A DNA stretch of 64,000 bases, taken from assembly GCA_016214655.1 (NCBI GenBank), contig JACROC010000002.1:3801-67800 (forward strand), written 5' to 3'. Position numbers and translations under genes: made by a program. This document shows, one piece after another, positions 27,908 through 43,086 of this stretch. Source of the stretch: Candidatus Harrisonbacteria bacterium. Its GTDB lineage: Bacteria > Patescibacteriota > Minisyncoccia > UBA6257 > 02-FULL-45-10c. The notes below the pieces were generated by a model. The model did no database searches, was not told where the DNA came from, and saw only the letters and a list, made by a program, of their open reading frames with translations. Within the stretch, counting starts at the first letter, position 1, and each line of letters opens with the position of its first letter.

Positions 27908-27948
27908 CCCGCCACTCGCTATATTTATAAAAACAAAAAGTCCGATTA

Positions 27949-28272: not shown

Positions 28273-28314
28273 CTTTTATGTCTCCACTGTTTTAATTTTC
28301 AACGAACTAGAAAG

Positions 28315-28360
28315 TGACTCTATATTATTTCAAAATCTGTGTTTTGTCAAAAGAAAAAAC
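28315..28360 (-). promoter_or_regulatory. T1 cassette: TTGACA-17-TAATAT + conserved 5' UTR (AGTTCGTTGAAAAT) + GGAG
   Basis: tgtcaa 28345-28350, atatta 28322-28327 on plus strand; near-identical to five other copies. Confidence 0.6.
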
Positions 28361-28385
28361 AAGCAATGAATGCCTGTTTAATGTA

Positions 28386-28688
28386 TTATCGTAATTTTTT
28401 TCTTTCTGACTCTTCCAATTGTTTTATAATCTCTTTCGTATCTTTTGTGTACTGATTAGATTTAACTTTCTTGCCATATATTACTTCATAAACAAACCTT
28501 ATGGTTCTTTTGAAGAGTTTAGCGGATACAGCATTGGCGGAAAGCAAAGATACTGCATATTTAACTTCTTGCCTTCCTTCCCTATTTACCCCCTTTAACA
28601 CTTTCATTACGGGCAACATTTCCGGATAAACTTTTATAGTTAATCCCTTTCTTACTGAGAAAACTACTTTATTCATATTCCCCTTCAT
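28386..28688 (-). CDS. Hypothetical protein (100 aa)
   Basis: Intact ORF, basic. Confidence 0.4.
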   Translation of the reverse strand: MKGNMNKVVFSVRKGLTIKVYPEMLPVMKVLKGVNREGRQEVKYAVSLLSANAVSAKLFKRTIRFVYEVIYGKKVKSNQYTKDTKEIIKQLEESERKKLR

Positions 28689-28760
28689 CCCTTATCTGAT
28701 TATTTAAAAGCTAATATAGATATTAATTAAGATAAATTGATTAGTCAAATAAAAAACCGC

Positions 28761-29234
28761 TCAATGTAGAGCGGTGGATACAGTAATTTTTCCATATATC
28801 GGTATTCCCATATACGTTCTGAGTAAGGGTAAATCAATCCCGCGTCCTTGTACGTCTACCTCATTTCCTAACCAATTACGAATAAAATTATATTTTAATG
28901 CTATAGACTCGCCAATATGAAGTTCTGGAGATTCAGGAAGCGATACATACCATCCCCATACTAACTCTTCACCTCTATCGTATTTCGATACTTCAATATA
29001 ATAGACCTCCTTGTTCTTTGGAAACATGTCCAAATCAAAACCATATAAATCTCTATCAAGTTTCCGCGCTTTTTTTAATACACCATTCATTGTGTAGGTC
29101 TTTTTTTCGTTATACGATCCAAGAGTGTGAAAAAAGTATGATAAATCGTCAAATACGGGAGTAAAAACAGAACCCCAAAAGATGGCAAATACTAGGAGAA
29201 AAATCATCGGTGGTTCATTAACCGTTTTTTTCAT
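28761..29234 (-). CDS. Hypothetical N-terminally anchored membrane protein (157 aa)
   Basis: N-terminal TM helix; overlaps upstream gene by 17 nt. Confidence 0.4.
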   Translation of the reverse strand: MKKTVNEPPMIFLLVFAIFWGSVFTPVFDDLSYFFHTLGSYNEKKTYTMNGVLKKARKLDRDLYGFDLDMFPKNKEVYYIEVSKYDRGEELVWGWYVSLPESPELHIGESIALKYNFIRNWLGNEVDVQGRGIDLPLLRTYMGIPIYGKITVSTALH

Positions 29235-29592
29235 TGTTGGCTCCTACGACTTCAAGCATTGCCCTACACGTCTTACACTGCTCCACATGGAGCATTCGGA
29301 TATCGGAAAGATTCGGCCACTGCTTGAGTTCTTTAAGAGTAAGGCAATCTTTGATAAAAGCCAGCTCCAATGCCTTGTCTTCTAATTTCCCCTTAAATTC
29401 TTCGGTCGTCATTCCGATTCCCATAGCGACTCTTTTCAAGGCAGCCTCGAACTCATCTTCTTGATTACCGGTCTTTTTTGAACCAAGATCAAAATAGTTG
29501 ATGATGTCTCTCCTTATGGTTGGCGAAGCTAACATCAAAAATAACACAATGCCTACGAGTGTCAGACTAACGATAATCAGATAATTTTCCAT
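29218..29592 (-). CDS. Hypothetical membrane protein (124 aa)
   Basis: N-terminal TM; T1 cassette promoter. Confidence 0.4.
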   Translation of the reverse strand: MENYLIIVSLTLVGIVLFLMLASPTIRRDIINYFDLGSKKTGNQEDEFEAALKRVAMGIGMTTEEFKGKLEDKALELAFIKDCLTLKELKQWPNLSDIRMLHVEQCKTCRAMLEVVGANNEKNG

Positions 29593-29635
29593 CTTTCCTC
29601 CTATCTTCAGTTTTAAACGAACTGGGTATTGATGA

Positions 29636-29670
29636 ATATATTACTTCAAAATCTATGTTTTGTCAACAAC
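29636..29670 (-). promoter_or_regulatory. T1 cassette promoter + UTR CAGTTCGTTTAAAACTGAAG + GGAGG
   Basis: tgtcaa 29661-29666, atatta 29638-29643, exact 17-bp spacer. Confidence 0.6.
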
Positions 29671-29705
29671 CCGTAATGGTTCAATAGCTTGGAATACCCC
29701 AAACT

Positions 29706-30593
29706 ATGTATATGACATATTCAAATGACCCCCACTTGCCTCGGGTTAGAATGGAGGCAGTTCGTTTAGTTCGCTCCGGTTTGAGCACGGTAAAGGTCGC
29801 AAGGCATATGGGATATTCTCAAAGCGCTATTGTGAAATGGGTAGCCAAAGCTCCTACTGATGGTCGAATGATCATTCCTACTCAGTCATCTCGTTTCTGG
29901 ACACATCCGCATTCTTTGTCTGCTGAATTAGTGGAAACTATTTTGTCTTATCGACGAGAAAGAAATCAATGCGCGGAGATTCTGCATTATCGTTTGGCTA
30001 CAGATGGTTACCGAGTCAGCCTCTCCTCAGTAAAAAGAACTTTGCAAAGAAATCAGATGACTCGTTTCTCTAAATGAAAAAAGTGGCATCAATATCCGCC
30101 TCGTCCTCTGGCAGAAAAACCAGGGATTCTGGTTCAAATTGACACGATTCACGACGGCCAGGTTGGGGAGCAGCTATACATCTATACTCTGCTGGATGTC
30201 TGCTCCCGTTGGGCCTATGCCCTGCCTTCTTTGTGGATCAATACTCATCGCAGTTTGCAATTTGTGGAAAGGGCGAAGGAATTAGCTCCTTTTCCTTTCC
30301 AAACTTTCCAATCAGATCATGGCAGTGAATTTTCCAAATGGTTTACCAAAAGAATCGGGGAACGAAACATGGCCCATCGCCATTCCCGAGTCCGGCAGCC
30401 GAATGACAATGCTCACTTGGAAAGATTCAATCGGATCATTCAGGAGGAATGCATTTCCCGGATTCCCGGGTCATTATCTGTCTGGAAAAAAGAAATACTG
30501 GAATATCTCCGGTATTACAATGAGGAAAGGCCGCATATGGGGTTGGCTATGAAAACCCCGATCGATATTATTAAAACTATTCCAAGCTATTGA
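29706..30593 (+). mobile_element. IS481-family (rve/DDE) transposase interrupted by a single in-frame TGA at 30075-30077, likely a pseudogene
   Basis: N-terminal HTH; the same frame continues after TGA through ILVQIDTIHDG...SDHGSEF...NAHLERFN (DDE) to ...ERPHMGLAMKTP. No other frame change. Confidence 0.6.
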
Positions 30594-30737
30594 TTAGAAA
30601 ACGCAACCCCGGACTAAAGCCCGGGGCTTGTGGCTACGAGATGTCAAAATAAAAACCGCAAAGATTATCTACGACCCCACCGAACATTGTTAAAAGTAAA
30701 GTTATAAAAATATAAACGTCAAATTTGGTTCAAAAAA

Positions 30738-30765
30738 AGACGGCGGTGAAGCCGTCGAAATTGTG
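30738..30765 (-). terminator. gacggcttcaccgccgtc + T7 (minus strand)
   Basis: Ends a GC-rich roughly 125-nt minus-strand segment that has no ORF. Confidence 0.45.
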
Positions 30766-30858
30766 CCAATGGGTACTTTGCGATCCGCTGCGTTGAGGAT
30801 TTAGCTTCCACGCTAGGTTTGGCATCCCCCGAGCCAACTACCCTACGCCGTAATCCCC

Positions 30859-30893
30859 ACTGGTATAATGTAATATAACATACTGGTATAATT
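30859..30893 (+). promoter_or_regulatory. Two tandem extended -10 boxes TGGTATAAT
   Basis: Extended -10 boxes at 30862-30870 and 30884-30892, upstream of a 19-codon micro-ORF and the T2/T3-like sequence. Confidence 0.4.
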
Positions 30894-30907
30894 TATCAAG
30901 TAAATCT

Positions 30908-30947
30908 GTGTGCCATCGTGTGGGATGTTAGAACTTTGTTTGAGAGG
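30908..30947. repeat. T2-family element (degenerate copy)
   Basis: GTGCCATCGTGTGGGATG-TTAGAAC-TTTGTTTGAG. Confidence 0.4.
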
Positions 30948-31018
30948 AAGAATGATGCGGGTATCTATGTTCTCGTTTTCTGCCACACCCGTGATTCGCC
31001 ATATTTTATAAAAGAAAA

Positions 31019-31046
31019 AACCACCTAATGACGGTGGTTTGCAAAT
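31019..31046. terminator. aaaaaaccacc-taatgac-ggtggttt (bidirectional)
   Basis: 3' of lipoprotein gene 31075-31833. Confidence 0.5.
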
Positions 31047-31074
31047 TATATTTTATCTTTAAAGAACTTTTCCA

Positions 31075-31833
31075 CTACTTGCGAACAACGGCGAAACGAG
31101 TGCCTTTGGGCAAACCCCTAAAGAAATAACCAAAACCCACAAATCGCTTCTCGCCGCCAATACTGCCAAGATATAAATTTTCCCACTTTCTGGCATCAAT
31201 GTTATACCGGCCGCCATCTAAAGTAACAATCTCGCTCTTTTGCTGCTCATCAGGATACGCGACCCCAAACGCAAGAAGTTCTGCGGCGTTAGCAAAGCCA
31301 AAACCCAACTTTCCCAGCTCATCCTTAATTTCATCATCTTTCACATAATCTCTTACTGGGAAATTGTCCTTCGGCTGAGAACCCCAAAATTTCCTTGTCA
31401 CCCATTCATTGGGTTCTAATTCCCTAAAAATTTCTTCTTTTGAGTATCTCTTAAAAAAATCTCCGATTGTGGCAATATGAACTTCAATTCTTTTTTTACC
31501 CTTATTTCCAGCTTGTGCGCAGGCAGACTTAAAATTATTCCCTAAAGCATTATAACCACCCAAAAGATCCTCATCATCCGGAGGCAACTGCATATATTTT
31601 CCAACAACAGCAATTACTCTCCTGAAAGACTGGCTACAGTTGACTTCAATCGGAAAACCCTCGCTGATATCAACTCTTACAAATTCTTTCTTTTCTTGAA
31701 TCTCGGTTGAAGTTTTCAGCCCACATCCCGCTTGCGATATGGAAAAAGATAAACTGACAATGATCAGGGTTGGTAATCCCAAAAACCATTTGTTTCGATT
31801 AGTCGCCATCTGTTTCCTCCTTTCAAGGAACAT
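31075..31833 (-). CDS. Secreted lipoprotein-like protein, paralog of 36562-37515
   Basis: Signal peptide + SQAGC lipobox-like; shared C-terminal block AELLxFGxxYxD...RFxxVR with the 317-aa protein. Confidence 0.5.
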   Translation of the reverse strand: MFLERRKQMATNRNKWFLGLPTLIIVSLSFSISQAGCGLKTSTEIQEKKEFVRVDISEGFPIEVNCSQSFRRVIAVVGKYMQLPPDDEDLLGGYNALGNNFKSACAQAGNKGKKRIEVHIATIGDFFKRYSKEEIFRELEPNEWVTRKFWGSQPKDNFPVRDYVKDDEIKDELGKLGFGFANAAELLAFGVAYPDEQQKSEIVTLDGGRYNIDARKWENLYLGSIGGEKRFVGFGYFFRGLPKGTRFAVVRK

Positions 31834-31882
31834 TAACTACTGATAAATATATTAGCAGAAAATAAAAGTAAAGTCAAATAAA

Positions 31883-31924
31883 GTTGGGTCGGCAACTGAA
31901 TCAGATTAGAACTTGTTTAGTGGG
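31883..31924. repeat. T2 element directly upstream of TTGACT -35
   Basis: GGGTCGGCAACTGAATCAGA-TTAGAAC-TTGTTTAGTGGG. Confidence 0.55.
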
Positions 31925-31958
31925 ATTATGAAAAAGGCCCCACTTTTATGAGGCAAAT

Positions 31959-32264
31959 TTATTTATGAAATAAGAAGTAAACAACCCACATCGGTGTAAA
32001 AAATAATACTAACCAAAGTAAAAATGGTGCTATCTCTCTGTTTTTGTGTTTCATCATCTCATAAATATTAAGGCCAATATAGATCATGGTGGGAATGCAT
32101 ATAAGCCACAAAGGGGCAAAGTATCCTATCACGGGGCCAACTAATAAAGCCGAAAGAAGGAGTGCTATTAAAGGCCGATCTTGCTTTGAAGTCATTATTC
32201 CTCTCAAGGCTAGTAAGTTTTTGAAGGTGCCTAATAATATTAGTAGATTTCGCCGGAAGTTCAA
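31959..32264 (-). CDS. Small membrane protein (101 aa, 2-3 TM)
   Basis: Hydrophobic helices; T2 element upstream. Confidence 0.4.
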   Translation of the reverse strand: MNFRRNLLILLGTFKNLLALRGIMTSKQDRPLIALLLSALLVGPVIGYFAPLWLICIPTMIYIGLNIYEMMKHKNREIAPFLLWLVLFFTPMWVVYFLFHK

Positions 32265-32368
32265 GCGGTGATATATAGCAAACTCTTTGAAAAAGATTTG
32301 GAATTAAAAAAGTTAATGCGGAGAAAGCCGATAGAGAATGTGGCTCCAATTACAATAAAGAGTAGGCT

Positions 32369-32402
32369 GGGTCGGCAACTGGATCAAGTTAGAACCTGAT
32401 GG
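32369..32402. repeat. T2 element
   Basis: GGGTCGGCAACTGGATCAAG-TTAGAAC-CTGATGG. Confidence 0.55.
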
Positions 32403-32449
32403 ACAAAAATTATTGGGTAGGCTATATTATGAACTAGCAACTTTACCAA

Positions 32450-32842
32450 TTGAAATGGGTAATGATAGATAAAGTAGCGTTATGCGGAACGGGCGGCTTT
32501 TGTACCTCTATTCTACTAGGAGTTCTGTGGGGCATAGCAATATGGCCCATTAACATTTTTTGGCTGATTATGACTATGCTTGTTTTCGCTATCGGATTGG
32601 CTTTATTGATAGCAGCAACTAATCTGGCTTATCACAATGGATTTAAGCACAATCAACCCTATGCAACGATTGTTGCAATGATTCTCAAGGAATATATCAA
32701 TTTACTCAATATACACGGCGAATATTCAAAAGAAGAGAAAGAATTCCGAGATAGATTCCAAAAGAATCCGGAACTACTGAACCTATTAGACACTGCTAAA
32801 ATGACAAAAACTGTTTACTCAACAGCCCTACAAGACCCTTAA
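32450..32842 (+). CDS. Membrane protein (130 aa); only plus-strand gene of the island
   Basis: 3 TM helices. Confidence 0.4.
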   Translation: MKWVMIDKVALCGTGGFCTSILLGVLWGIAIWPINIFWLIMTMLVFAIGLALLIAATNLAYHNGFKHNQPYATIVAMILKEYINLLNIHGEYSKEEKEFRDRFQKNPELLNLLDTAKMTKTVYSTALQDP

Positions 32843-32870
32843 TAACGGGGTCTCTTTTTATTAAAACTAG

Positions 32871-32906
32871 GTGCCGTCGTGTAGGATATTAGAACCAGGA
32901 TAAACA
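32871..32906. repeat. T2-family element (degenerate)
   Basis: GTGCCGTCGTGTAGGATA-TTAGAAC-CAGGATAAACAC. Confidence 0.4.
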
Positions 32907-32963
32907 CAAATTGAGTTACCCCACCCCCAAATACACTATTTTGAAAAGAAAAACCGTTCAAGA

Positions 32964-33512
32964 TTAACGGTCATTCTCCTTAGAACGTATTTCGCTTGCG
33001 AATTTTTGTATAAATGCCTCATCGGCTTCCCTATATTCGTTGCTATCCTTTCCATAAAGTTTCTCGGCCTGCCTCCTGGCTTCGATATATATATTAAGCT
33101 TCTTTTTAAGAGATTCTGCACGTTCTTTGTCTCGTTGAATCCATAGTTGCATTGCCTCTTTATATTCTTTACTGTCTTCTCCTAATGCCTGAGCGGCTAT
33201 CATCGCCGCATCAGGATAATTGCGAGCTTCCATTGCCTGTTTATACATTTCTTTACCAAATTGCTTGCCTTGCTCTTCCGAAACCAATTCAACGTTTTCT
33301 AGTTCATATTTAAGTTCGACTGCTAAATAGTAATTACCGTGATTAGCAAGGTCTGTAATAACCTCCTCAGCCCATCTTTGAATCTCTGTAGCGGATATTC
33401 CTAACTCCACACCTTTGCGAATCGTAAAAGAGGGGCGGCCCATTTTTTTAATTTGTTCCCAAGATTGTTCCTTTGGCTTATCTTCTTTGTTAAACCTCTT
33501 ATCGGGATTCAT
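32964..33512 (-). CDS. Hypothetical cytoplasmic protein (182 aa), Lys/Glu-rich helical
   Basis: Intact ORF. Confidence 0.4.
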   Translation of the reverse strand: MNPDKRFNKEDKPKEQSWEQIKKMGRPSFTIRKGVELGISATEIQRWAEEVITDLANHGNYYLAVELKYELENVELVSEEQGKQFGKEMYKQAMEARNYPDAAMIAAQALGEDSKEYKEAMQLWIQRDKERAESLKKKLNIYIEARRQAEKLYGKDSNEYREADEAFIQKFASEIRSKENDR

Positions 33513-33583
33513 AAATACACATTATCATAAATAAACTTGTTATACACGTTCTTTTATTTGCTCCTTTCTAGTAGGGAAAATTA

Positions 33584-33612
33584 GAACCTATTTTGTGAGT
33601 GTTGGGGCGTTA
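33584..33612. repeat. T2-family element (short copy)
   Basis: GGGAAAA-TTAGAAC-CTATTTTGTGAGTG. Confidence 0.4.
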
Positions 33613-33616
33613 CCCC

Positions 33617-33696
33617 ACCCCGTGATTCACTATATTTCTTAAAAAGAAAAAGCCCCGAATGGGATTAAACCATTTTGAGGCTTCGGGGAAAATCAA
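33617..33696. repeat. T3 element: CACCCCGTGATTCACTATATTTCTTAAAAAGAAAAAG + hairpin with conserved loop
   Basis: Stem ccccgaa/ttcgggg enclosing loop TGGGATTAAACCATTTTGAGGC (inner AATGG/CCATT stem). Confidence 0.5.
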
Positions 33697-33922
33697 TTTC
33701 CCCGTATCATCTTGCTTATTCTACTTCGGGATAACCACCTCTTTAGGTAAATCTTTGCGCAATGCCTTGTTCCACTTTTCGGCACTGGCCTCATCCGGAA
33801 CAATAACAGTGGCTTTCCTATAAAAGTTCCCGGAACCTTCTTTCAATCTATACTTCGAATTCACCTCTACGTACACCAATTTTTCTCCTGAAGGAACGAC
33901 TTGTACAAAAACCTTCCTGGTA

Positions 33923-34177
33923 TTATTTACACCAATACAAGGAGGTGTCTCTTCCCCCTAAAATATCCAATTCTAAATACCAAGTACTAGGCAATCTATC
34001 ATATCTACTATATCGCATATCTGCATATCGTAATACCCTTGCCGACTGAACCACGAATTTCGTTTTCTTCTCAACCCCATAAGAATCACAGTTAATGAGC
34101 CCGCCGCACAAGACAAAACCGAAACATAGCATCAGGGATTTCATCTTCTTCACCCTTTCTCCTTCAATTTTCAACAA
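33923..34177 (-). CDS. Hypothetical signal-peptide protein (84 aa); may continue by frameshift into a 52-codon frame down to about 33715
   Basis: Lipoprotein-like N-terminus; downstream frame encodes LVYVEVNSKYRLKEGSGNFYRKATVIVPDEASAEKWNKALRKDLPKEVVIPK directly after the stop. Confidence 0.35.
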   Translation of the reverse strand: MLKIEGERVKKMKSLMLCFGFVLCGGLINCDSYGVEKKTKFVVQSARVLRYADMRYSRYDRLPSTWYLELDILGGRDTSLYWCK

Positions 34178-34199
34178 ACTAAATTCTAGTGTATATATT

Positions 34200-34245
34200 A
34201 CTTCAAAATTTATGTTTTGTCAAAAGAAAAAACCGCCTCAGCTTA
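34200..34245 (-). promoter_or_regulatory. T1 cassette promoter + UTR
   Basis: tgtcaa 34234-34239, atatta 34211-34216; preceded by terminator ccgcctcagcttacgctttggcgg (34249-34272). Confidence 0.6.
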
Positions 34246-34274
34246 CGCTTTGGCGGATACAAAATGAAATACGA

Positions 34275-35789
34275 TTAATCAGTAAATTTAATCTGTTTAT
34301 GCTGGGAGAGACAAAGGTAAAGCGCAACTGCAACGCAATCGGCTAGAAAACCCCTGCCGACTTTTTCATCATGCAGACAACAAGCGCGCTGATATGCCTC
34401 CGCAACTTTATTGCCCAAGCCACTCAAATGAGAGTCGATGATGGCTTTGTAAATACATTTAACAGTGGGAAAGCCCTGCACGAACTCGCTATTGTGAGCA
34501 ATACTCGTAGGCTTTCCGGCTGAAACAGCTAAATCTTCCTCGTAATACCGGAGAACATTCGTGGCTTTAGGATGTTTTGCAATTTTGCGATCGGTATAAT
34601 TAGAAAGGACATGAACCAACTGTTTCATTTCCACTAGTCTATCAACATCCTCACGCGTGGTTGCTCTAAGGACAGCAACCGCTTTCTGAAGGATGTCTTC
34701 CGTTTTCATTGTGCTTGATAAATCAAAAAGGTGTTGGCTTGCCACGACAGGAATCAGAAGTTCAATAATACCGTGATTGATTCTGCCCCCTCCCCGGTTG
34801 CGCAGACTTTCCTTCTGGGCCCGGAGAGCAAAATGGTATATCGGCGGCTGCCCATCTACACTATGCTGACGCACACTTCGTGCCAAATCTTCAAATGCCT
34901 CGCCGATGTTGATACCCCCTATTACAAAATACTCAAGTTTCAAATGCCGACTCACATTTCGATGTCTGGTAGTGCAACCGGTTTTATCCGATAGCGGCTC
35001 AAGTGCGCAAGCAAGCATTACTTGCCGGCCAGTTTCGCGAGGAGTTCTTACATCTTTCTGATTCTCCCATGCAATTTTGTAAAGAACATCCAGGTGACGC
35101 TCATCTTGTTGCTCATCCTCCTCCATAAAAATATCTGCATCGTATAAATCCTCAATCAGACGCCGCAGATCCGGGTTCAGCACAAGCATTTTTTCTTTTA
35201 TCTGAGCCGCGCTAAGCTTTGCTCCGCCAAACTTATCATTCGCCCGATGCAAAGCATCGTAACAATCAGCAAGCGCCAACATCCGACCATAAAAAGTAAT
35301 TAAAGCCTCCGTGGCTCGGGAAAAAGAATGAGACTTCTTCGGAAGTTTACTCGGATAACCATTAACTTGAAATCGGTGATGCCACAATATAACTTCTGCG
35401 GTAAAATCGAAAGTTCCCCTAAGGAGTCGATAACTGTCCATAACATGGGCTTTCATAACCCTAGTATCCTTAGCTGTCCATCCGCTCGTTTTTTCCAAAG
35501 TTGAAATGGGAGCCTGAGTTTTACCAATATCATGGAATACGCCAGCATACACAAGCGCTTTAACATCAAGATTCATAAACTTAGCTATTAACTCAAGCAG
35601 TAATGCAACACGAAGGCTGTGCTGGTAATGAAGGTGGGTTACAGAATTCTTGTTTCGAAGTGGAGCGAGCAACGATCTTACCTTTCTACGCTCATCACTA
35701 CTCACCTTCAAATCGCTTAAAATCTCGTCAAATCTTTTCTCGAGCCAGGTAGTATAAGCCGCATCGTTCTCTACGTGTATTTTGTCCAT
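34275..35789 (-). CDS. HD-GYP-type phosphohydrolase domain protein with uncharacterised 250-aa C-terminal extension
   Basis: GVFHDIGK (HD motif) and ILWHHRFQVNGYPS (HHExxDGxGYP-like). Confidence 0.55.
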   Translation of the reverse strand: MDKIHVENDAAYTTWLEKRFDEILSDLKVSSDERRKVRSLLAPLRNKNSVTHLHYQHSLRVALLLELIAKFMNLDVKALVYAGVFHDIGKTQAPISTLEKTSGWTAKDTRVMKAHVMDSYRLLRGTFDFTAEVILWHHRFQVNGYPSKLPKKSHSFSRATEALITFYGRMLALADCYDALHRANDKFGGAKLSAAQIKEKMLVLNPDLRRLIEDLYDADIFMEEDEQQDERHLDVLYKIAWENQKDVRTPRETGRQVMLACALEPLSDKTGCTTRHRNVSRHLKLEYFVIGGINIGEAFEDLARSVRQHSVDGQPPIYHFALRAQKESLRNRGGGRINHGIIELLIPVVASQHLFDLSSTMKTEDILQKAVAVLRATTREDVDRLVEMKQLVHVLSNYTDRKIAKHPKATNVLRYYEEDLAVSAGKPTSIAHNSEFVQGFPTVKCIYKAIIDSHLSGLGNKVAEAYQRACCLHDEKVGRGFLADCVAVALYLCLSQHKQIKFTD

Positions 35790-35815
35790 CTATATCTCCT
35801 TTTAAAAAGATCCAG

Positions 35816-35850
35816 TGTTATATTAACACTAAATTTGAAGGGTGTCAAAA
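35816..35850 (-). promoter_or_regulatory. T1-variant cassette promoter TTGACA-17-TAATAT
   Basis: tgtcaa 35843-35848, atatta 35820-35825; terminator ccgccaaataagcgg upstream. Confidence 0.55.
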
Positions 35851-35872
35851 GAAAAAACCGCTTATTTGGCGG

Positions 35873-36433
35873 TTAATGTTCTGATTCATTATTCTTATCT
35901 TCTAGACGCTGCCGATCCCTTTGATCATATTCTTGAGCAAGTTTTTGGGCTTTTGCTTTAAAATCCTCGCCCTCCTCAAGATCAACGATATAAGATCGTA
36001 TAGGTAAATCGCCAAGACAGCCAGTATCTCTTAGAAGACTATCGCTCTTTCTCCACCCAAAACTACTTATAAGATTCACACCGACTATCCCCTCGGTCTC
36101 ATAAAGACCCCTTATCTGCATATCAATAAATTCTTTCTCTAACTTCGAATCTTCAACTCTCCTCGAATCTATACGGCGCAATCGTTCTTCTTGGGCACCT
36201 CTGTCAATGTTTAGAAAAATAAGGACGCGCTCAGGATTATCAGTTGGTTGCTTTGGATACGCATAATCAGGAAACCCATATTGATAATCAGGTATCACAA
36301 AAATAACGGCATCAAGAACAAATGGGAATTTTCTTAATTTCTTTTCAAGTCGATCAAGATTAATCTGTATAGTGGGTCGTATATATGCAACATCTATTTC
36401 TTCAGTCGTCTTCCCATGAAGATTGTATACCAT
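35873..36433 (-). CDS. Hypothetical protein with nucleoside/nucleotide-kinase-like LID region but no full Walker A
   Basis: HGKTT near N-terminus; VLIFLNIDRGAQEERLRRIDSRRVEDSKLE resembles dNK/NMP-kinase LID. Confidence 0.3.
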   Translation of the reverse strand: MVYNLHGKTTEEIDVAYIRPTIQINLDRLEKKLRKFPFVLDAVIFVIPDYQYGFPDYAYPKQPTDNPERVLIFLNIDRGAQEERLRRIDSRRVEDSKLEKEFIDMQIRGLYETEGIVGVNLISSFGWRKSDSLLRDTGCLGDLPIRSYIVDLEEGEDFKAKAQKLAQEYDQRDRQRLEDKNNESEH

Positions 36434-36561
36434 CTATTTAAACCTTCTTATCCTAAATTACTAAACATATATTATTAAAAAGATATCTTTTTGTCAAAAA
36501 ACTGCTGACAAATAGAAATGCCCACACAGTAAACCGTGTGGGCATTTTTCCAGATGTCCCG

Positions 36562-37515
36562 TTACTTACGAAGGCCGACGAGACGACCTGCGGGGCCGCC
36601 CCAGGACTCAATTTCAAGCCAGAAAAAAGACAAGTTCCACTGGTCCCCGTCCCAGTAGAGATACGCGACACGCTGGCCACCATACCAGTCCTGCCAGACC
36701 GTTCCTGGAAAGATAAGATAATACTTGCCTTGCCATTCTTTGGGAATGAGATCTTGATGCTCCAGCAGATATTCGGCATGACGCTGGCTAAGATGAGCAT
36801 TGAGCTCCTTGGCTCTCTGCTTCATCACATCGCCCCTCACATAGGACTCGTTAGGCTTGAGGAACTCTACGATATCAGGAACAAACTGCTTACCATCGAA
36901 TGAGGTATCCTCAAGGAGCGTCCAGCCAGATTTAGTTTTATCATAATCGTACTTGTAGGACTCGCGCACAGCCAGGAACCGACAGCCCTCGTGCCACCTA
37001 CAGTCAAAACAGTTAAATTCCATGTAGCGCCCGCCAGAGCCCATCAAAAGATACGGCACTTTGTAATGATTGCGACGGGCATTCGGATCCAGCCAGACCG
37101 AACCCAGTGCGACTACCGAAACGACTGGCGGAAACTGATTCCAAATGTCAGAGTATTTCGCCCCAAAAACTAAAAGTTCGCGAAGCTCGGCGGGACGATA
37201 GCCCATCTTATCCAATTCTTTGAGCGCTTCCTCAGAGGTCAATACCCCGTTGAAATGCACTAGTCCAAGAACAAGATCAACCTCACCCTTCCGAATGGTT
37301 GGGAAGTTTTTGGTGGTGAAGTTATAATTTTGCCCGTCATACTTTCCCATGGCCACCATGGATTCCACCGAAAGATCATAGTTGACCGAAATTGGGAAAG
37401 TTTCCACTTGATTTTCAACTTGAATCTCCTCAGTGTCATTCGGCTCTTTACAAAAGACCAATGGAGAAAATAAAACAGTCGCCCCAAAAGAAAACATCAG
37501 GACAAGCTTTTTCAT
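36562..37515 (-). CDS. Secreted protein (317 aa), paralog of 31075-31833
   Basis: Signal peptide; shared C-terminal block ending GCRFLAVRE. Confidence 0.5.
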   Translation of the reverse strand: MKKLVLMFSFGATVLFSPLVFCKEPNDTEEIQVENQVETFPISVNYDLSVESMVAMGKYDGQNYNFTTKNFPTIRKGEVDLVLGLVHFNGVLTSEEALKELDKMGYRPAELRELLVFGAKYSDIWNQFPPVVSVVALGSVWLDPNARRNHYKVPYLLMGSGGRYMEFNCFDCRWHEGCRFLAVRESYKYDYDKTKSGWTLLEDTSFDGKQFVPDIVEFLKPNESYVRGDVMKQRAKELNAHLSQRHAEYLLEHQDLIPKEWQGKYYLIFPGTVWQDWYGGQRVAYLYWDGDQWNLSFFWLEIESWGGPAGRLVGLRK

Positions 37516-37557
37516 TGTTCCTCCTCTCTTCTTCAGTTTTAAACGAACTGTAAAGTG

Positions 37558-37592
37558 CTTATATATTACTTTAAAATTTATGTTTTGTCAAA
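37558..37592 (-). promoter_or_regulatory. T1 cassette promoter + UTR ACAGTTCGTTTAAAACTGAAG + GGAGG
   Basis: tgtcaa 37585-37590, atatta 37562-37567. Confidence 0.6.
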
Positions 37593-37676
37593 AAAATAAT
37601 CCAAATCGACGACCGGATCAAATTAAAATATATTTAGTGAGTAATAAAAAAGCCCAAAAATAATTTAGGGCGTATA

Positions 37677-37928
37677 TTACCAATTTACTCCTTTTTTAAG
37701 CACGCGATAGAACAGGGCGCCTAGAATCCCAAATAAAACGGGAACAATAAAAAATGCTGGGATGAATAACGGCGAAAAAACATGTGCATCACTTGTTATG
37801 ACCGGTGCTACGATGGAACCTATTAAGATAAGCGATGTAATAGCGATATTTCTACCCCTACATTGCACTTTATATCCCACAAGCACACCTAAACACAGAA
37901 GAAAAACCAACAAAAGCAACCAACCCAT
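37677..37928 (-). CDS. Small membrane protein (83 aa, 2 TM)
   Basis: Hydrophobic. Confidence 0.4.
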   Translation of the reverse strand: MGWLLLLVFLLCLGVLVGYKVQCRGRNIAITSLILIGSIVAPVITSDAHVFSPLFIPAFFIVPVLFGILGALFYRVLKKGVNW

Positions 37929-38034
37929 TACATACCCCCAATAGGATTAAAGAATGCTGTTTATATAGTATCACGCAAAAAAAATCTGTCAATGCAAATA
38001 AAAACCGCCTTTGTGGGGCGGGTTTATTTAAGTT

Positions 38035-38202
38035 TCTTCAAAACCCATTTCTTTCCGTTTTTATCAGTTAAAATAACTTCGTCCGGCCATTCCGAATACG
38101 GCCTTGAATAAGCTTCAGCCAATACATCAGCATTCAATCGCACTAATTCTTTGAGATCTTCCCGGAGTGCATCCATGACATCCCTTCTCATTTTAAAGAA
38201 CT
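38035..38202 (-). CDS. Small ORF (56 aa) with terminator aaacccgccccacaaaggcggttttt
   Basis: ATG with upstream AGGGAT; MRRDVMDALREDLKEL...; not in the >=60-aa ORF track. Confidence 0.3.
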
Positions 38203-38336
38203 ATTTAAATAGTTTATAATTTTAAAATTAAATAAGTCAAATAAAAAATATAAAACCCTACATTTACGTAGGGTCATTATCAGATTTATTTTCTGAATTA
38301 TCGCCGGTCGACGGTAAATTGGAGGGTGTCTCATTT

Positions 38337-38813
38337 TTATTTATCATTGTCCTTTTTCTTTCTGACTTTTTCTAGAATATCCGAACGAACATAAACATAT
38401 TTATCCCGTGGCAGGAACCAAGGTATTAAGGCACGGAGTAATTTATTTCTAGGAGCAGAAGCCGCTAAAACGCCATTTTTTTGAAAACTGACTACAACGC
38501 TTTCATTATTTACTTCAATTGAACCGATGAGATTATCCCCTAATACTGCTAAGAAAAAAGGGTTGTCCACGATGCTTACATAATTTTCACCTGCTACCCT
38601 AACCTTCATAGTCATACTACTGGTATATACATTTAAAACCGTTCCTTGTAGTAAAGCACCGCCATTACCAATGGCACTAACCCAGACAGTAACGGTAGAC
38701 TTATGGACCAACTTATTTAAATTGTTTAAATCGTCCAATTCTTTTGCAAAAATATTGGAAGAACAAAATAAAAATAGTCCGATGACCATAACCATCTTTT
38801 TCTTCATTTCCAA
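38337..38813 (-). CDS. Secreted hypothetical protein (158 aa)
   Basis: Signal peptide MVMVIGLFLFCSSNIFA. Confidence 0.4.
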   Translation of the reverse strand: MEMKKKMVMVIGLFLFCSSNIFAKELDDLNNLNKLVHKSTVTVWVSAIGNGGALLQGTVLNVYTSSMTMKVRVAGENYVSIVDNPFFLAVLGDNLIGSIEVNNESVVVSFQKNGVLAASAPRNKLLRALIPWFLPRDKYVYVRSDILEKVRKKKDNDK

Positions 38814-38887
38814 CCTCCTTTTTCAATGAGCATTCTCTGCTTTTCAGCAGTGTTGATATATTAACATAAAATTTTTATAAATCAAAT

Positions 38888-38927
38888 CTGGATCGGCAAC
38901 TGGAGCGGGTTAGAACCTGTTTGGTGA
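38888..38927. repeat. T2 element
   Basis: TGGATCGGCAACTGGAGCGGG-TTAGAAC-CTGTTTGGTG. Confidence 0.55.
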
Positions 38928-38970
38928 GGTTATAAAAAAAACCGCTGGGCGAACCAAGCGGCTGTTTTTA

Positions 38971-39153
38971 TCAAACAAGTGCAACTTGAAATTGATTTTT
39001 ATCGTCTGTATAACCTCGAATTTCAGCAACTTGCTTCGCACTACCATCTCTAGATGTTGAACAAAGATTGCAAGTTCCCATACGAATTTTATTGGGAGGC
39101 ACTTCTATACCCACTTTCTTTAAGCATCCAACACAATAAGTATGTATACTCAT
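38971..39153 (-). CDS. Small zinc-ribbon protein (60 aa)
   Basis: CVGC...CNLC four-Cys arrangement. Confidence 0.4.
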   Translation of the reverse strand: MSIHTYCVGCLKKVGIEVPPNKIRMGTCNLCSTSRDGSAKQVAEIRGYTDDKNQFQVALV

Positions 39154-39220
39154 TCCTTTTCTCGCTAATAATGTTCTGTAACTATATTATTCTCTAATCA
39201 AAAATAAATCAAATAAATTT

Positions 39221-39258
39221 AGGTCAGCAACTGGATCGAGTCGGAACCTGTTTAGTTG
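39221..39258. repeat. T2 element
   Basis: AGGTCAGCAACTGGATCGAG-TCGGAAC-CTGTTTAGTTG. Confidence 0.5.
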
Positions 39259-39288
39259 AGTCATAAAAGAAAAAAGTCATTCGCGCGA

Positions 39289-39780
39289 CTATTGATTCTC
39301 TCTGACTTGATTATTATCTTTGAAGTCTTGATACAAACCCGAAGATTTATCCTCATTAAACCAATAATTTTTTTCATTAGGATTGATTGAAATAAGGCTA
39401 CGAACTAATTGGTCTTTGGTGCAACAGAGTGAGGTTCGTTTGCCGTATCGAAATCTGTACGTTTTCTGCCAAAGTTTTGCCGTCTCTGTCACGGGCTCTT
39501 CAACTATGACTGGTCCCCAAAAATGGAGTCCTAATCTGCAAAGAAATTTTATTTCCTTATCGTCTGTATTTAAACCACCAGATTCTAGCAAATGGCTTCG
39601 TGCCTCATCCATGAAAACAATAGTGAAAATGGTGAGCAAATACATCAAAAGCCAAAAAATTAAGATTCCCTTCAATCCCCAGACTAAAACGATAAACGCC
39701 ACCAGAAGCCAGTCTTGTAAACCAGCTGGTCTCGTGGAAAGTATTAATTTAACTAACTTCATTTCCCATCTCCTTTTCAA
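39289..39780 (-). CDS. Membrane protein (163 aa)
   Basis: 2 TM helices near N-terminus. Confidence 0.4.
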   Translation of the reverse strand: MKRRWEMKLVKLILSTRPAGLQDWLLVAFIVLVWGLKGILIFWLLMYLLTIFTIVFMDEARSHLLESGGLNTDDKEIKFLCRLGLHFWGPVIVEEPVTETAKLWQKTYRFRYGKRTSLCCTKDQLVRSLISINPNEKNYWFNEDKSSGLYQDFKDNNQVRENQ

Positions 39781-39834
39781 CGAGCGTTAGGTGCTGATAA
39801 ATATATTACTAAGAAATAAGAATAAAATCAAACC

Positions 39835-39873
39835 TGGGTCGTCTAGTGAACAATGTTAGAACTTGTTTGATGA
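39835..39873. repeat. T2 element (variant)
   Basis: TGGGTCGTCTAGTGAACAATG-TTAGAAC-TTGTTTGATG. Confidence 0.5.
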
Positions 39874-39920
39874 TTTGAAAAATAAAAACCGTTGAGCAAA
39901 TCAACGGTTCCTGAATTCTA

Positions 39921-40343
39921 TTATTCAATTACCTGCGTCATTCCCTTTCCCGTCTTTCCGTGATCCCAACCGGCGCCTTCAACATTCTTTTCCGAATGGA
40001 GGTGAATTTCTAGGGAAATCACCCGCCAACGCGCATTAATGCCATTGTCCCGCATCACAACATGCGACCACATCTTCTCCTCCCCTGAAACATCTTTGAA
40101 AAGATGTACACAATCGGAATAATCATTACATCGATATGCTTCCATTTTTAGTTCTTTAGAGTCATTTTTCTCAGTAATCAAAGTCCAATTATACCGGTCA
40201 TGCATCAATACGCGAACGATATTCTCAACTTTCTCCTCCGAAATTCTCGAGATCCTTTTCATTTCTTGCCGCGTCACTGTATAAATAGTAGATAAACACA
40301 AGGCAATACACATCAAAACTAAAACCCTATAAAGATTTTTCAT
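39921..40343 (-). CDS. Secreted hypothetical protein (140 aa)
   Basis: Signal peptide. Confidence 0.4.
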   Translation of the reverse strand: MKNLYRVLVLMCIALCLSTIYTVTRQEMKRISRISEEKVENIVRVLMHDRYNWTLITEKNDSKELKMEAYRCNDYSDCVHLFKDVSGEEKMWSHVVMRDNGINARWRVISLEIHLHSEKNVEGAGWDHGKTGKGMTQVIE

Positions 40344-40460
40344 CGCCCCTCCTTTGCTTCCCCTTATTTAGTACTATTTAAAAATTACCACAATATATTT
40401 ATTCTGTCAATTAAACGTACCGGCGAGTTCAATAAGTAAGTGCACCATTTGGTAAAAAAG

Positions 40461-40754
40461 TTATTTCTTACTGACATCGATTATCTCCTCCCAAAACATG
40501 GTGGCGCTATTCGTAGGATCACCTTCACCATTAATACCGCAAAGTTCCACACCCCCTTCGCTGATGCCGCGCACTACCAATTGCTGAATTACTTCAATGC
40601 TTCCATTTCCCTTTCGCCTGGTAACTTCTACCATACCTTTTTCAAGAGATTCTTCCGACAAGAAAATCTCCAAGGATGCTTGAAAAATTAGGCGAAGGCG
40701 CTCACGTTTTTCTTGATCAGATTCTTTTTGGGGACCGCGTTCAAATTGACTCAT
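40461..40754 (-). CDS. Hypothetical protein (97 aa)
   Basis: Intact ORF. Confidence 0.35.
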   Translation of the reverse strand: MSQFERGPQKESDQEKRERLRLIFQASLEIFLSEESLEKGMVEVTRRKGNGSIEVIQQLVVRGISEGGVELCGINGEGDPTNSATMFWEEIIDVSKK

Positions 40755-40801
40755 TTATAAAATAGGGATCATTATGATGAATAATATTAAAACTTCTTTA
40801 A

Positions 40802-41695
40802 TCAATCTCGAATTAACATCACCCCAACAATCATAATAGCAAAAAGCAGTGCTTTTTTGGCAATTGCCCAACCATCAATTTCCTCTCTAAATACACCCGG
40901 CAGATTTTTTGATAAAAACCTGGCATAAAATACCAGAAAAAATGGCGTGAGCATCGAAATGCTCTTCGCCATACTTACTGAAGCAAGCGCAATCGCGTAA
41001 CTTTCGGAAACAAAGGCAATAAAGGTGAATGTTTCCTCAGCCGCAAAAACCGGAAACATTTGCCTGAAAATGTTGACGTTAGCTATAATGTCACTTCTTG
41101 TGCGTTGTGGAATTAAGAAAAGCAAAGCCAGCAAAAGCGCCGTTCCCCCTTCCCCAACAAGCACAGTACCCAAATTCACTCCTTGTCCAAAAAGATATTT
41201 GATCAACACCCCCTCAAATGAAAGAATAAAAGCCGCCAATCCAATATACCAGAAAGCCTTGCTGAATCGAAAATCTTCTTTCCAACCTCTTAAACTCAAA
41301 AGCGTGCTGCTCAATATAAGCAATCCGATACCAACATATTGAAACAAAGTCAGAACTTCACCGACAATAAAAAAGGCCAAGATGGGAATGAAAATTCTCC
41401 CCAACGAGAAAAAGGAAATGGCAATAGAAGTGTCATCGCTTTGCAGTCCTTTATAGTAAGGATAAAGATATATAATATTAATGAAGCCCAAAAGAAATAA
41501 AATCGGGAAAACAGCCGCCGACGGCATGACTGGCTTAAAAAAAATAAAAACTAATGGGAGAAACAAAAGATTAAATAAAGAAGTGTAAAATGCGAGAGTG
41601 GTTGGATTTTTAAATTTTTGATTAACTAAAAAATTATCTAAAACGTTGGACAGGGCATAAAAAGCCGGCGCTAAAAATGCAATCAACAGCCACAT
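40802..41695 (-). CDS. EamA/DMT-superfamily transporter (10 TM)
   Basis: Two 5-TM repeats, 297 aa. Confidence 0.6.
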   Translation of the reverse strand: MWLLIAFLAPAFYALSNVLDNFLVNQKFKNPTTLAFYTSLFNLLFLPLVFIFFKPVMPSAAVFPILFLLGFINIIYLYPYYKGLQSDDTSIAISFFSLGRIFIPILAFFIVGEVLTLFQYVGIGLLILSSTLLSLRGWKEDFRFSKAFWYIGLAAFILSFEGVLIKYLFGQGVNLGTVLVGEGGTALLLALLFLIPQRTRSDIIANVNIFRQMFPVFAAEETFTFIAFVSESYAIALASVSMAKSISMLTPFFLVFYARFLSKNLPGVFREEIDGWAIAKKALLFAIMIVGVMLIRD

Positions 41696-41736
41696 AAGAA
41701 AATTATAACACGGTAAGAAGCAATTTTATTTACCCC

Positions 41737-41813
41737 GCCCCAAAACTCACCGTATTTTGAAAAAGAAAAAGCCCCAGATGGGATAAAACCATATAGGGCT
41801 TTTGAAGTTGCTT
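41737..41813. repeat. T3 element with conserved hairpin loop
   Basis: ...GAAAAAGAAAAAGCCCCAGATGGGATAAAACCATATAGGGCTTTTG. Confidence 0.5.
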
Positions 41814-42177
41814 CTTTCTCCATTGCTTCAAAAAAGTTGATTATGCTTCCCTAGCATAAAACCTGCGACATCTTTGTATTCATTCCATTGTTTTCTGACC
41901 TTACTCTTTAAAATAGCGGGTATGGTAATTGGCCAATAAACTACGAACATCACAGCTGTTAAAGCAGTTTCCATTCTCATACCCCCTCTTCCTTTTGAGT
42001 TTATACTTCAGAGTACTGCGTATATAATATATTAAAATAATCCTTTTGTTAAAAAAAGAGCCCCGGTACTATAAAAGCTACTGGGGGAGGTGCCTGCTAC
42101 CCCCGCTCTCGAACAGGAACCTCAATATATTAATATCATATCGTTGTTAATAAAGTCAATTAAAAAAACCGCCCTTA

Positions 42178-42456
42178 TTAAGTGATTTCACGCAACATAT
42201 CAACTAAAACAGGGTCTTCTATATATCTCCAAAATCTGGGCAAAGGAGCGTAATAGGTTCGATTCCATTCGTCTCCAGAACAGGAGCATGGCAAAAATGG
42301 ATAAACGGTAATCAGTTGTTTCGTTTGAAATCCTTTGAGTAAAGGAAGCAGCTCTTCCGGCTTTAATCGGGTGCGAGCTTCCAATTCGAGAGAACTCTGG
42401 ATCCCGCCTTCTTTTAAAGCGTGAATCAGCCTGTCCACGGCCATTTTCTTTTCCAT
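42178..42456 (-). CDS. Hypothetical protein (92 aa)
   Basis: T1 cassette promoter. Confidence 0.4.
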   Translation of the reverse strand: MEKKMAVDRLIHALKEGGIQSSLELEARTRLKPEELLPLLKGFQTKQLITVYPFLPCSCSGDEWNRTYYAPLPRFWRYIEDPVLVDMLREIT

Positions 42457-42496
42457 TCTCCTTCCTTTTTCAGTTTTAAACGAACTTAAAAGTGCT

Positions 42497-42530
42497 TCTA
42501 TCTTATTTCAAGATTTACTATCTGTCAAAA
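42497..42530 (-). promoter_or_regulatory. T1 cassette promoter TTGACA-17-TAAGAT + UTR AAGTTCGTTTAAAACTGAAA
   Basis: tgtcaa 42523-42528; terminator ccgctaaagcgtaagctgaagcgg upstream (42536-42560). Confidence 0.6.
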
Positions 42531-42571
42531 GAAAAACCGCTTCAGCTTACGCTTTAGCGGTTCTATTTAAT

Positions 42572-42916
42572 TCAAAACACTACGGTCCGCACCACTTCCG
42601 AATATCCGATCATTCCTTGATTTGAACCATGAGGATTCAATAAAACCCACTCGAGATATTTCTTATAAGCCTCCTCACGACTTATTTTTCCGAGAACAAC
42701 CACATTCATTTGCTTTGAACCGCTACAATTAAAAATGATGCGATAATCATCTACCTTTTCCCACTTGACGTCCCCGCGCGTTCCATGAACTTCAGATAAG
42801 TCAGTTGTACTAGAGCTGGGATAAAATTTACTCATAAACCGCCTCTTTAACTCTGGGTTCGCGTTTATTTCATCCAGGAATTTTTTAATTCTCTTATCAT
42901 AAAGTCTCACAATCAA
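42572..42916 (-). CDS. RelE/ParE-family toxin-like protein (114 aa), no adjacent antitoxin
   Basis: N-terminal KKFLDEINANPELKRRFMSKF and C-terminal GDVKWEKVDDYRIIFNCSGSKQMNVVVLGKISREEAY fit the RelE/ParE pattern. Confidence 0.4.
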   Translation of the reverse strand: MIVRLYDKRIKKFLDEINANPELKRRFMSKFYPSSSTTDLSEVHGTRGDVKWEKVDDYRIIFNCSGSKQMNVVVLGKISREEAYKKYLEWVLLNPHGSNQGMIGYSEVVRTVVF

Positions 42917-43047: not shown

Positions 43048-43086
43048 AATTGTAAAAGAAAAAAGCGCGATTCATCGCACTTTTAG

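Follow-up and report, generated by a model that had tools for sequence, protein, structure and literature searches.

The 64-kb stretch of Candidatus Harrisonbacteria contig JACROC010000002.1 analysed here (the window; the contig measures 137.6 kb in total) contains a repeated intergenic module, T1, in which a promoter and a conserved leader box stand in front of different open reading frames (ORFs). T1 is a real, non-random and well-delimited repeat family. Five copies are present in the window, to which all copy counts refer, all of them on the minus strand within 28.3-42.5 kb. At least three families of repeated intergenic modules, T1 among them, are confined to a single island (27.9-44.3 kb). 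With a probability of about 0.6, T1 represents five related, self-contained expression cassettes in a hypervariable island rich in orphan ORFs (ORFans), which spread by duplication and have been kept similar by selection together with recombination. The statements on the function of T1 are predictions.

Pattern and profile searches delimited the family. On the minus strand, the 29-nt promoter TTGACAAAACATAAATTTTGAAGTAATAT was matched with 0-3 mismatches at 28322-28350, 29638-29666, 34195-34223 and 37563-37591, where the number expected by chance is 0 (100 shuffles). The longer pattern TTGACA-N17-TAANAT-N12-16-AGTTYGTTKAAAAYTRAA has exactly five sites (these four and 42469-42528, 0 expected). 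The 18-nt leader box AGTTYGTTKAAAAYTRAA by itself, with up to 2 mismatches, is found only at the five T1 sites in the 64 kb (0.32 expected). A profile hidden Markov model built from the five copies, reaching from 12 nt upstream of the -35 hexamer to 55 nt downstream of the -10 hexamer, recovered them at E = 7e-22 to 1e-19, and the next match had E = 0.016. The copies are listed below, with the lower coordinate of the -10 hexamer, by which they are also named, in brackets.

Copy 1 (28322), 28270-28385, minus strand: terminator hairpin 28357-28379 (-9.8 kcal/mol, z -5.9) and T-run; -35 TTGACA 28345-28350; -10 TAATAT 28322-28327; box AGTTCGTTGAAAATTAAA 28291-28308; Shine-Dalgarno (SD) sequence GTGGAG; ATG 28270-28272 of a 107-aa ORF (27949-28272); nhmmer E = 3.7e-21.
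Copy 2 (29638), 29590-29672, minus strand: no T-run or terminator; -35 29661-29666; -10 29638-29643; box AGTTCGTTTAAAACTGAA 29606-29623; SD GGAGG; ATG 29590-29592 of a 124-aa ORF (29218-29592), which is overlapped by a 157-aa ORF (28761-29234); E = 1.6e-20.
Copy 3 (34195), 34154-34262, minus strand: terminator CCGCCAAAGCGTAAGCTGAGGCGG 34233-34256 (-14.4 kcal/mol, z -3.1) and T-run; -35 34218-34223; -10 34195-34200; box AGTTTGTTGAAAATTGAA 34163-34180; SD GAAGGAG; likely start GTG 34154-34156 of a small lipoprotein-like ORF (~33923-34156); E = 1.2e-19.
Copy 4 (37563), 37513-37603, minus strand: A/T-rich run; -35 37586-37591; -10 37563-37568; box AGTTCGTTTAAAACTGAA 37532-37549; SD GGAGG; ATG 37513-37515 of a 317-aa secreted-type ORF (36562-37515, locus tag HZB99_00390); E = 7.4e-22.
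Copy 5 (42500), 42454-42567, minus strand, with the most divergent promoter: terminator CCGCTAAAGCGTAAGCTGAAGCGG 42537-42560 (-16.7 kcal/mol, z -4.7) and T-run; -35 42523-42528; -10 TAAGAT 42500-42505; box AGTTCGTTTAAAACTGAA 42469-42486; SD GGAAGGAG; ATG 42454-42456 of a 92-aa ORF (42178-42456); E = 5e-21.

The module measures ~85-95 nt. Alignments of the copies showed the order of its parts to be a T-run (TTTTTTCTTT), the -35 hexamer TTGACA, a conserved spacer (AAACATAAATTTTGAAG), the -10 hexamer TAATAT followed by A, a variable linker of 13-14 nt, the box, the SD sequence and the start codon. The T-run TTTTTTCTTT is present in three copies, and an A/T-rich run takes this place at 37563. The box has the consensus AGTTCGTT(T/G)AAAA(C/T)T(G/A)AA and is followed after 2-13 nt by a GGAG-type SD sequence and then by the start codon, which lies 16-27 nt from the 3' end of the box in the five genes. 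Pairwise comparisons of the whole modules showed identities of 58-73% (97 columns). The conservation is blockwise, with the spacer and the box kept while the linker varies and includes a 1-nt indel.

A preliminary description of the window had reported six copies of an identical promoter with a 17-bp spacer. The spacer length holds at all six sites, and the multiple alignment supports the existence of the family, but with five similar members rather than six identical ones. Only four promoters match the 29-nt sequence with 0-3 mismatches, and the promoter of copy 5 differs at 7 of the 29 positions. The sixth site is a generic terminator-promoter junction with an ordinary consensus promoter:

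35820 site, 35787-35874, minus strand: terminator AACCGCCAAATAAGCGGTT and T-run TTTTTTCTTT; TTGACA-17-TAATAT at 35820-35848 with an unrelated spacer and no box; E = 1.7.

This site, which had been counted as a variant, has only the T-run, the -35 and the -10 in common with T1, and it lies upstream of a conserved HD-domain gene (34275-35789). The same description held that the conservation extends well past what sigma-70 recognition needs. The alignments support this view.

Weak dyads are present within the T1 spacers (CAAAA-N6-TTTTG, with AGAT-N5-ATCT in copy 42500). In a separate promoter of the island, TTGACA-17-TAATAT at 36469-36497 (minus strand), upstream of the ORF 35873-36433, the spacer consists of a perfect 16-bp palindrome, AAAAAGATATCTTTTT. 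Such spacer dyads could be operators.

The genes behind the five copies are unrelated to each other. An all-against-all blastp comparison of 36 island ORFs found no kinship among the T1-downstream proteins. The sole weak pair, the ORFs 31075 and 36562 (E = 5e-4), has T1 in front of only one of its members. No matches of the T1-driven genes were found in Pfam, NCBIfam or PHROG. Repeat detection likewise placed the similarity only in intergenic stretches of 43-79 nt. A segmental duplication that includes the flanking coding sequence, which the preliminary description had named as the finding that would overturn it, is thus ruled out, and its idea of a portable cartridge, a terminator-promoter-leader unit placed before unrelated ORFs, was broadly right. 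The copies are part of a larger region:

Island, 27897-44260, minus strand: contains all T1, T2 and T3 modules (T2 and T3 are described below); GC content 36-42%, lower than the surroundings.

The island lies within the interval between tRNA-Gln (24927-24998) and GreA (45044-45553). Its ORFs are nearly all on the minus strand and are mostly ORFans, many of them with N-terminal hydrophobic or lipoprotein-type leaders, and almost every one has its own predicted intrinsic terminator and near-consensus promoter. The pattern TTGACA-N17-TAATAT, with up to 1 mismatch, has 10 of its 11 sites on the minus strand at 28.3-42.5 kb (0.61 expected). Sigma-70-like promoters also precede tRNAs and core genes beyond the island, so that a special sigma factor need not be invoked. 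The window carries RNase P RNA, five tRNAs, GreA and other chromosomal genes and contains no 16S gene; the RNase P RNA and the tRNAs identify it as part of a chromosome of the candidate phyla radiation (CPR). This context of at least three module families in an ORFan island of a CPR host was absent from the preliminary description. No multi-copy intergenic families were found in the core flanks of the window or in four comparator CPR loci. The HD-domain protein has its closest homologue in another genome at 55% identity. Homologues of its gene in other Parcubacteria are found in different contexts, near an S8 peptidase or GreA, suggesting that the ORFans around the HD gene in the window are lineage-specific. 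Homologues of the 317-aa ORF sit in core operons. The loci of both sets of homologues have core-type contexts without repeat families and are too distant for breakpoint analysis.

The upstream edge of the module is formed by terminators. At 28322, 34195, 35820 and 42500, a hairpin and its U-tract run straight into the -35 hexamer (-7.2 to -16.7 kcal/mol, z -3.1 to -5.9). One terminator, ccgcNNagcttacgctttNgcgg, occurs twice (34223-34256 and 42527-42560, 88% identity over 34 nt), close to the near-identity claimed for it, and the pair shows a compensatory stem change from CCGCC/GGCGG to CCGCT/AGCGG. The claim that a terminator immediately precedes each copy stands for these four sites but fails at the other two. 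The nearest terminator to copy 4 (~37652-37671) is located ~50 nt further upstream and is not adjacent, and at 29638 an insertion sequence (IS)-like element takes this position:

Degenerate IS-like element, 29672-30602, plus strand, outer limits approximate: fragment of a helix-turn-helix ORF 29706-30077; fragment of an rve_3 ORF 30231-30593.

The element has perfect 16-nt terminal inverted repeats (29681-29696 and 30578-30593). It ends ~6 nt upstream of the -35 of copy 2, which accounts for the lack of a T-run or terminator in this copy. Excision of the element would bring a GC-rich hairpin (30605-30628) directly against this -35. The element is a separate insertion that splits copy 2 from its former upstream hairpin.

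Comparisons of the individual segments showed that the copies are related in different ways along their length. The terminator module groups 34195 with 42500 (88% identity), the promoter groups 34195, 29638 and 37563, and 28322, 37563 and 42500 have the linker GCACTTT in common. Copies 28322 and 34195 share the box variant TTGAAAATT, and copies 29638 and 34195 share an inserted C. These groupings are mutually incompatible, and not all of them can be placed on one tree. Incompatible splits are the pattern expected from module exchange or gene conversion.

These features suggest the following mechanism for the proposed cassettes. The intrinsic terminator of the upstream gene would insulate the cassette, and its U-tract would double as the A/T-rich stretch before the -35. 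A near-consensus promoter for the housekeeping sigma factor (TTGACA, 17 bp, TAATAT) would come next, and transcription probably starts ~7 nt past the -10. The predicted leader of ~45 nt would be unstructured, and in it the 18-nt A/U-rich box would be separated from a strong downstream SD sequence by 2-13 nt. The copies would descend from one module that was duplicated before different genes, and segments would since have been exchanged by homologous recombination or gene conversion, with selection preserving the promoter and the box. As a result, newly acquired or fast-evolving small genes, many of them encoding envelope or secreted proteins, would each be strongly and independently expressed. 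As direct repeats, the modules could further promote the loss and rearrangement of the intervening genes, in the way that promoter-early stem-loop (PeSL) cassettes do in T4-type phages.

Several points weigh against this interpretation. Promoter use, start site and terminator efficiency are all predicted from sequence. The nearest HD-gene homologue, at the 55% identity given above, is such that no indel breakpoint inside T1 can be observed. A role for recombination is drawn from five short sequences that together offer about a dozen informative sites, and parallel substitution under selection could give the same split conflicts. The blockwise conservation fits selection for the binding of a regulator as well as it fits recombination. 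The copy number of T1 is that of the 64-kb window within the 137.6-kb contig. In other genomes, matches to the box outside the three leaders described next are at about chance level, and two of those in CPR genomes lie inside long ORFs.

Searches for relatives of T1 were extended to large sequence collections. The full T1 pattern had 0 exact matches in 185,579 GTDB species genomes, IMG/VR and JGI metagenomes, indicating that T1 is not a widespread mobile element and that the source genome and its close relatives are absent from the collections scanned. A relaxed scan (box, N2-14, GGAG) gave 80 loci with a single match each (35 + 43 + 2) in many phyla, none of which extends into the promoter part of the T1 profile. 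Three of the genomes, L015 (Patescibacteria UBA2193), L023 (a metagenome-assembled genome (MAG) of Moranbacteria) and L026 (a MAG labelled Bdellovibrionales), carry a leader family in which a box variant, AGTTCGTTGAAAATTGAA, is invariant and is identical to the T1 copies at 16-17 of 18 positions. The leaders (L015:4480-4589, L023:3672-3779 and L026:4082-4194) are ~110 nt long and 69-79% identical between genomes. Each consists of a promoter, a 5' palindrome or hairpin (TTACGATGAA..TTCATC.GTAA, with compensatory changes in L015), the box and the SD sequence, and no Rfam family matched them. The divergent neighbour is a TrmB-family winged-helix regulator, which is only 33% identical between L023 and L026. 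The downstream ORFs are 65% identical between L015 and L023 and unrelated between L023 and L026. The leader is likely a regulator-operator-leader unit. The invariance of AGTTCGTTGAAAATTGAA in the three leaders independently indicates selection on the box in Patescibacteria, and the unrelated ORFs in L023 and L026 show that promoter-leader modules can stand before different genes. No TrmB homologue is present in the window. Another Patescibacteria MAG has the box AGTTCGTTGAAAATTAAA after a TTGACA-16-TATAAT promoter (L035:7150-7290, minus strand of the locus). There the box precedes TAAGGAGAG...CTCTCCTTA, which would mask an SD-like sequence in a hairpin, and no ORF is present downstream. This element may be a small RNA or an attenuator.

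The gene behind copy 5 has detectable relatives. A word-indexed search with the 92-aa ORF returned only the self match, and a full HMMER search gave five matches at E <= 0.001, two of them at E <= 1e-10. The orthologue, P0216, is 63% identical and is found next to an HU gene on four groundwater CPR contigs. Its promoter is an ordinary TTGACA-17-TATACT without a box, which indicates that T1 is not ancestral to the 92-aa gene. A 1767-aa protein, P0217, has 11 stretches that match residues ~37-77 of the 92-aa protein, suggesting that these residues form a repeat unit in a giant protein elsewhere.

The possibility that the leader acts through its RNA structure was examined by folding. The preliminary description had proposed a conserved hairpin, CAGTT-N7-AACTG, in the untranslated region, and such a hairpin could be a functional element of its own (a stabiliser, a thermometer or a riboregulator). 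Its stem is a 4-5 bp A/U-rich dyad, and in its favour the pairing is kept in 96% of the cells (24 of 25), two copies having G-U in place of G-C and the closing pair showing one double change. However, the same pairing is reached by 304 of 500 column shuffles, and the covariation score by 215 of 500. The stem-loop alone has -1.5, 0, -0.1 and 0 kcal/mol in the four sequence variants. The five whole leaders fold no better than dinucleotide shuffles (z = +0.98 to -0.88), and their minimum-free-energy folds mostly omit the CAGTT/AACTG stem. Rfam gave 0 matches in 27500-44600, even at E <= 1, and the L015, L023 and L026 leaders keep the sequence of the box but not the stem. A functional hairpin is therefore very unlikely, and the T1 box is conserved as sequence, not as structure. 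The box looks functional from its conservation, and its most likely role is either at translation initiation on the mRNA, where it would be an A/U-rich enhancer or a standby site, or in binding a common factor. Shorter box-like strings (CTCGTTGAAAAGGAG, CTCATTGAAAAAGGAGG and GTTCCTTGAAAGGAGG) occur directly before the SD sequence in three T2-type leaders of the island. The binding of a factor leads to the main rival of the cassette interpretation, with which it can coexist: T1 would be a regulon in which the spacer (dyad CAAAA-N6-TTTTG), the box (~+15 to +33) or both are operators of one dedicated transcription factor. The five genes would be switched together, and their similarity would be kept by selection for binding rather than by recombination. 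The conservation of spacer and box beside a variable linker is consistent with such a regulon, as are the spacer dyads, the perfect palindrome of the neighbouring 36469 promoter and the TrmB-family regulator that adjoins the same-box leader divergently in three other Patescibacteria. A further point for a regulon is the most upstream T1 gene (42178-42456), the 92-aa product of which has a structural model that starts with three short helices. However, no regulator was identified: the 92-aa protein matched nothing in Pfam, NCBIfam or PDB, its single-sequence AlphaFold model is unreliable (predicted local distance difference test score of 49.6), and TrmB homologues are missing from the window. 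In addition, the spacer dyad is short and A/T-rich and is lost in copy 42500, and the box dyad changes from AGTT/AACT to AGTT/AATT in two copies, weakening the symmetry of the DNA. We regard the regulon as a tentative possibility.

A mobile origin was weighed in the same way. T1 could be the outward promoter end of an element derived from an IS or a miniature inverted-repeat transposable element (MITE) and scattered by transposition, or it could be the early-promoter set of an integrated or decayed phage. The near-consensus promoters, the ORFan-rich setting of low GC content, the tRNA-Gln gene at the edge of the island and the IS remnant inside it would all suit such an origin, and PeSLs are phage elements. 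However, the alignments showed no terminal inverted repeats or target-site duplications around the T1 copies, the edges of which fade into unrelated terminators upstream and into the SD sequence and ATG downstream. A MITE- or IS-borne promoter was rejected on these grounds. All copies face the same way and are tied to gene starts. Neither an integrase nor a phage hallmark gene is present, and the only PHROG match is marginal (E = 0.0035, to a family of unknown function). A megablast search of the island against 50,697 phage records gave no DNA match, the T1 pattern is absent from IMG/VR, and the conserved HD gene and other chromosomal genes lie inside and around the island. The megablast and PHROG results led to the rejection of the prophage reading, and a mobile or phage origin of T1 as a whole is highly improbable.

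Among known systems, the cassettes most closely resemble the PeSLs, which T4-type phages carry as mobile regulatory cassettes (Arbiol et al. 2010, PMC2839356; Comeau et al. 2014, PMC4122927). A PeSL combines a stem-loop with a strong sigma-70 promoter and an A/T-rich upstream stretch, is conserved over ~100 bp and is found in hyperplastic ORFan regions; recombination between copies, indels and mini-circles have been shown experimentally (PMC2839356, PMC4122927). Spacer dyads characterize one PeSL subclass. T1 likewise has a terminator stem-loop, and its strong sigma-70-like promoter and A/T-rich stretch upstream of the -35 match at the level of sequence only. Both occur as many direct copies conserved over ~100 bp (T1 was aligned over 85-97 nt), and in both the region is hyperplastic, the flanking ORFans each have their own promoter and terminator, and the modules are mosaic. 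However, T1 is located in a CPR chromosome without phage genes, whereas PeSLs act as early promoters in T4-like phages. T1 has an added conserved leader box next to the SD sequence, and its stem-loops are ordinary, non-conserved terminators, in contrast to the GGGG...CCCC motif of PeSLs. Recombination is experimentally established for PeSLs and only inferred for T1. By analogy, T1 would work like a PeSL without being a member of the class: it agrees in architecture and position and differs in not belonging to a T4-type phage.

A less close counterpart of the box is found in the start-associated sequences (SAS/ESAS) of Cluster K mycobacteriophages (Pope et al. 2011, PMC3203893). Both are short, asymmetric sequences in one orientation just upstream of the start codons of unrelated genes (many non-structural genes in the case of SAS). 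For both, a role in translation initiation or factor binding is suspected, and a hairpin of the associated repeats is not supported by the substitutions (PMC3203893). SAS are 13 bp long and GC-rich, include the SD sequence and lie 3-7 bp from the start codon, whereas the T1 box is rich in A/U, precedes the SD sequence and is always coupled to a promoter. The parallel is one of analogy only. The leader of gene 10 of phage T7 (g10-L) is an A/U-rich translational enhancer. Like T1, it has an A/U-rich box directly before a strong SD sequence, a short unstructured leader and a strong promoter, a likeness that is a functional analogy only. Comparison of the two sequences (NC_001604 for T7) showed identity at 11 of 18 positions, with the local pattern GTTTAA..CT..AAGAAG..GGAG, which in A/T-rich DNA is no evidence of homology. 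The island as a whole resembles integron cassettes and clusters of attC sites lacking integron integrases (CALINs) in its co-oriented, small and mostly unknown genes, the repeats between them and its position in a variable chromosomal region. Integron cassettes are typically promoterless, whereas the T1 cassettes carry their own promoter and terminator. The T1 alignment, inspected without a dedicated attC model, contains no long imperfect inverted repeat of the attC type. The scanned island ORFs include no integrase, and their only rve-type match is the IS remnant.

T1 shares the same 16 kb and the same strand with two further families of six copies each:

T2 family, minus strand: 31880-31918, 32363-32401, 38884-38922, 39215-39253, 39830-39868 and 43004-43042; profile E = 2e-14 to 3e-11.
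T3 family, minus strand: 27897-27941, 30974-31021, 32911-32957, 33605-33652, 41724-41773 and 44161-44206.

T2 is a box of ~39-50 nt (AAACAGGTTCTAAC..G.TCCAGTTGCCGACCCAG.TTT) located between the terminator and the -35, directly upstream of the -35 of six promoters. From this position, it is probably untranscribed DNA and could be an activator site or a recombination site. Degenerate versions of T2 follow T3 at ~30905-30945, 32870-32905 and 33570-33598. The T2 box has a 10-mer, GGGTCGTCTA, in common with the 5' part of tRNA-Gln, and this match was judged compatible with chance. T3 consists of a terminator T-run followed by AAATATAGTGAATCACGGGGTGGGGTAA, with a -10-like hexamer TATAGT that has no good -35, and a G-rich tract. 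Three of the T3 copies (33647-33689, 41766-41808 and 44199-44241) share a large conserved terminator hairpin, GCCCCGAA..AATGGTTTAATCCCATTCGGGGC.

Two further features of the window were recorded. A candidate small RNA at 30733-30899 (minus strand) begins with a promoter TTGATA-16-TATATT (30899-30872), continues as a GC-rich stretch of ~130 nt without an ORF and ends in a terminator (30739-30756) with a T7 run; it folds at -47.1 kcal/mol (z -2.2) and has no Rfam match. In the core part of the window, a 133-nt direct repeat (7832-7964 and 16253-16385) has copies that are 79% identical and 8.4 kb apart.

Taken further, T1, T2 and T3 together might form an integrase-independent, PeSL-like cassette system of a CPR chromosome, which would supply expression signals and patches of homology for the insertion, deletion and shuffling of envelope and secreted ORFans in the variable island of an episymbiont. 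In this wider proposal, which we consider doubtful, the box would act across the Patescibacteria as a cis-element that enhances translation or binds a conserved factor, as suggested by its invariant close variant beside TrmB-family genes in other lineages. The PeSL-like arrangement in a CPR chromosome and a leader motif common to other Patescibacteria are moderately new. For CPR/Patescibacteria, almost no knowledge exists of the organisation of gene expression or of the turnover of lineage-specific small surface proteins. If T1 copies are only locally duplicated promoters, they would represent ordinary promoter paralogy in a genomic island. If the linkers between the genes work as predicted, they would provide concrete promoter, terminator and leader parts for an uncultured phylum. 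In that case, regulatory cassettes that shuffle ORFans, so far described only for T4-type phages, would be extended to a bacterial chromosome, and the conserved leader motif could be used for finding co-expressed genes in other Patescibacteria.

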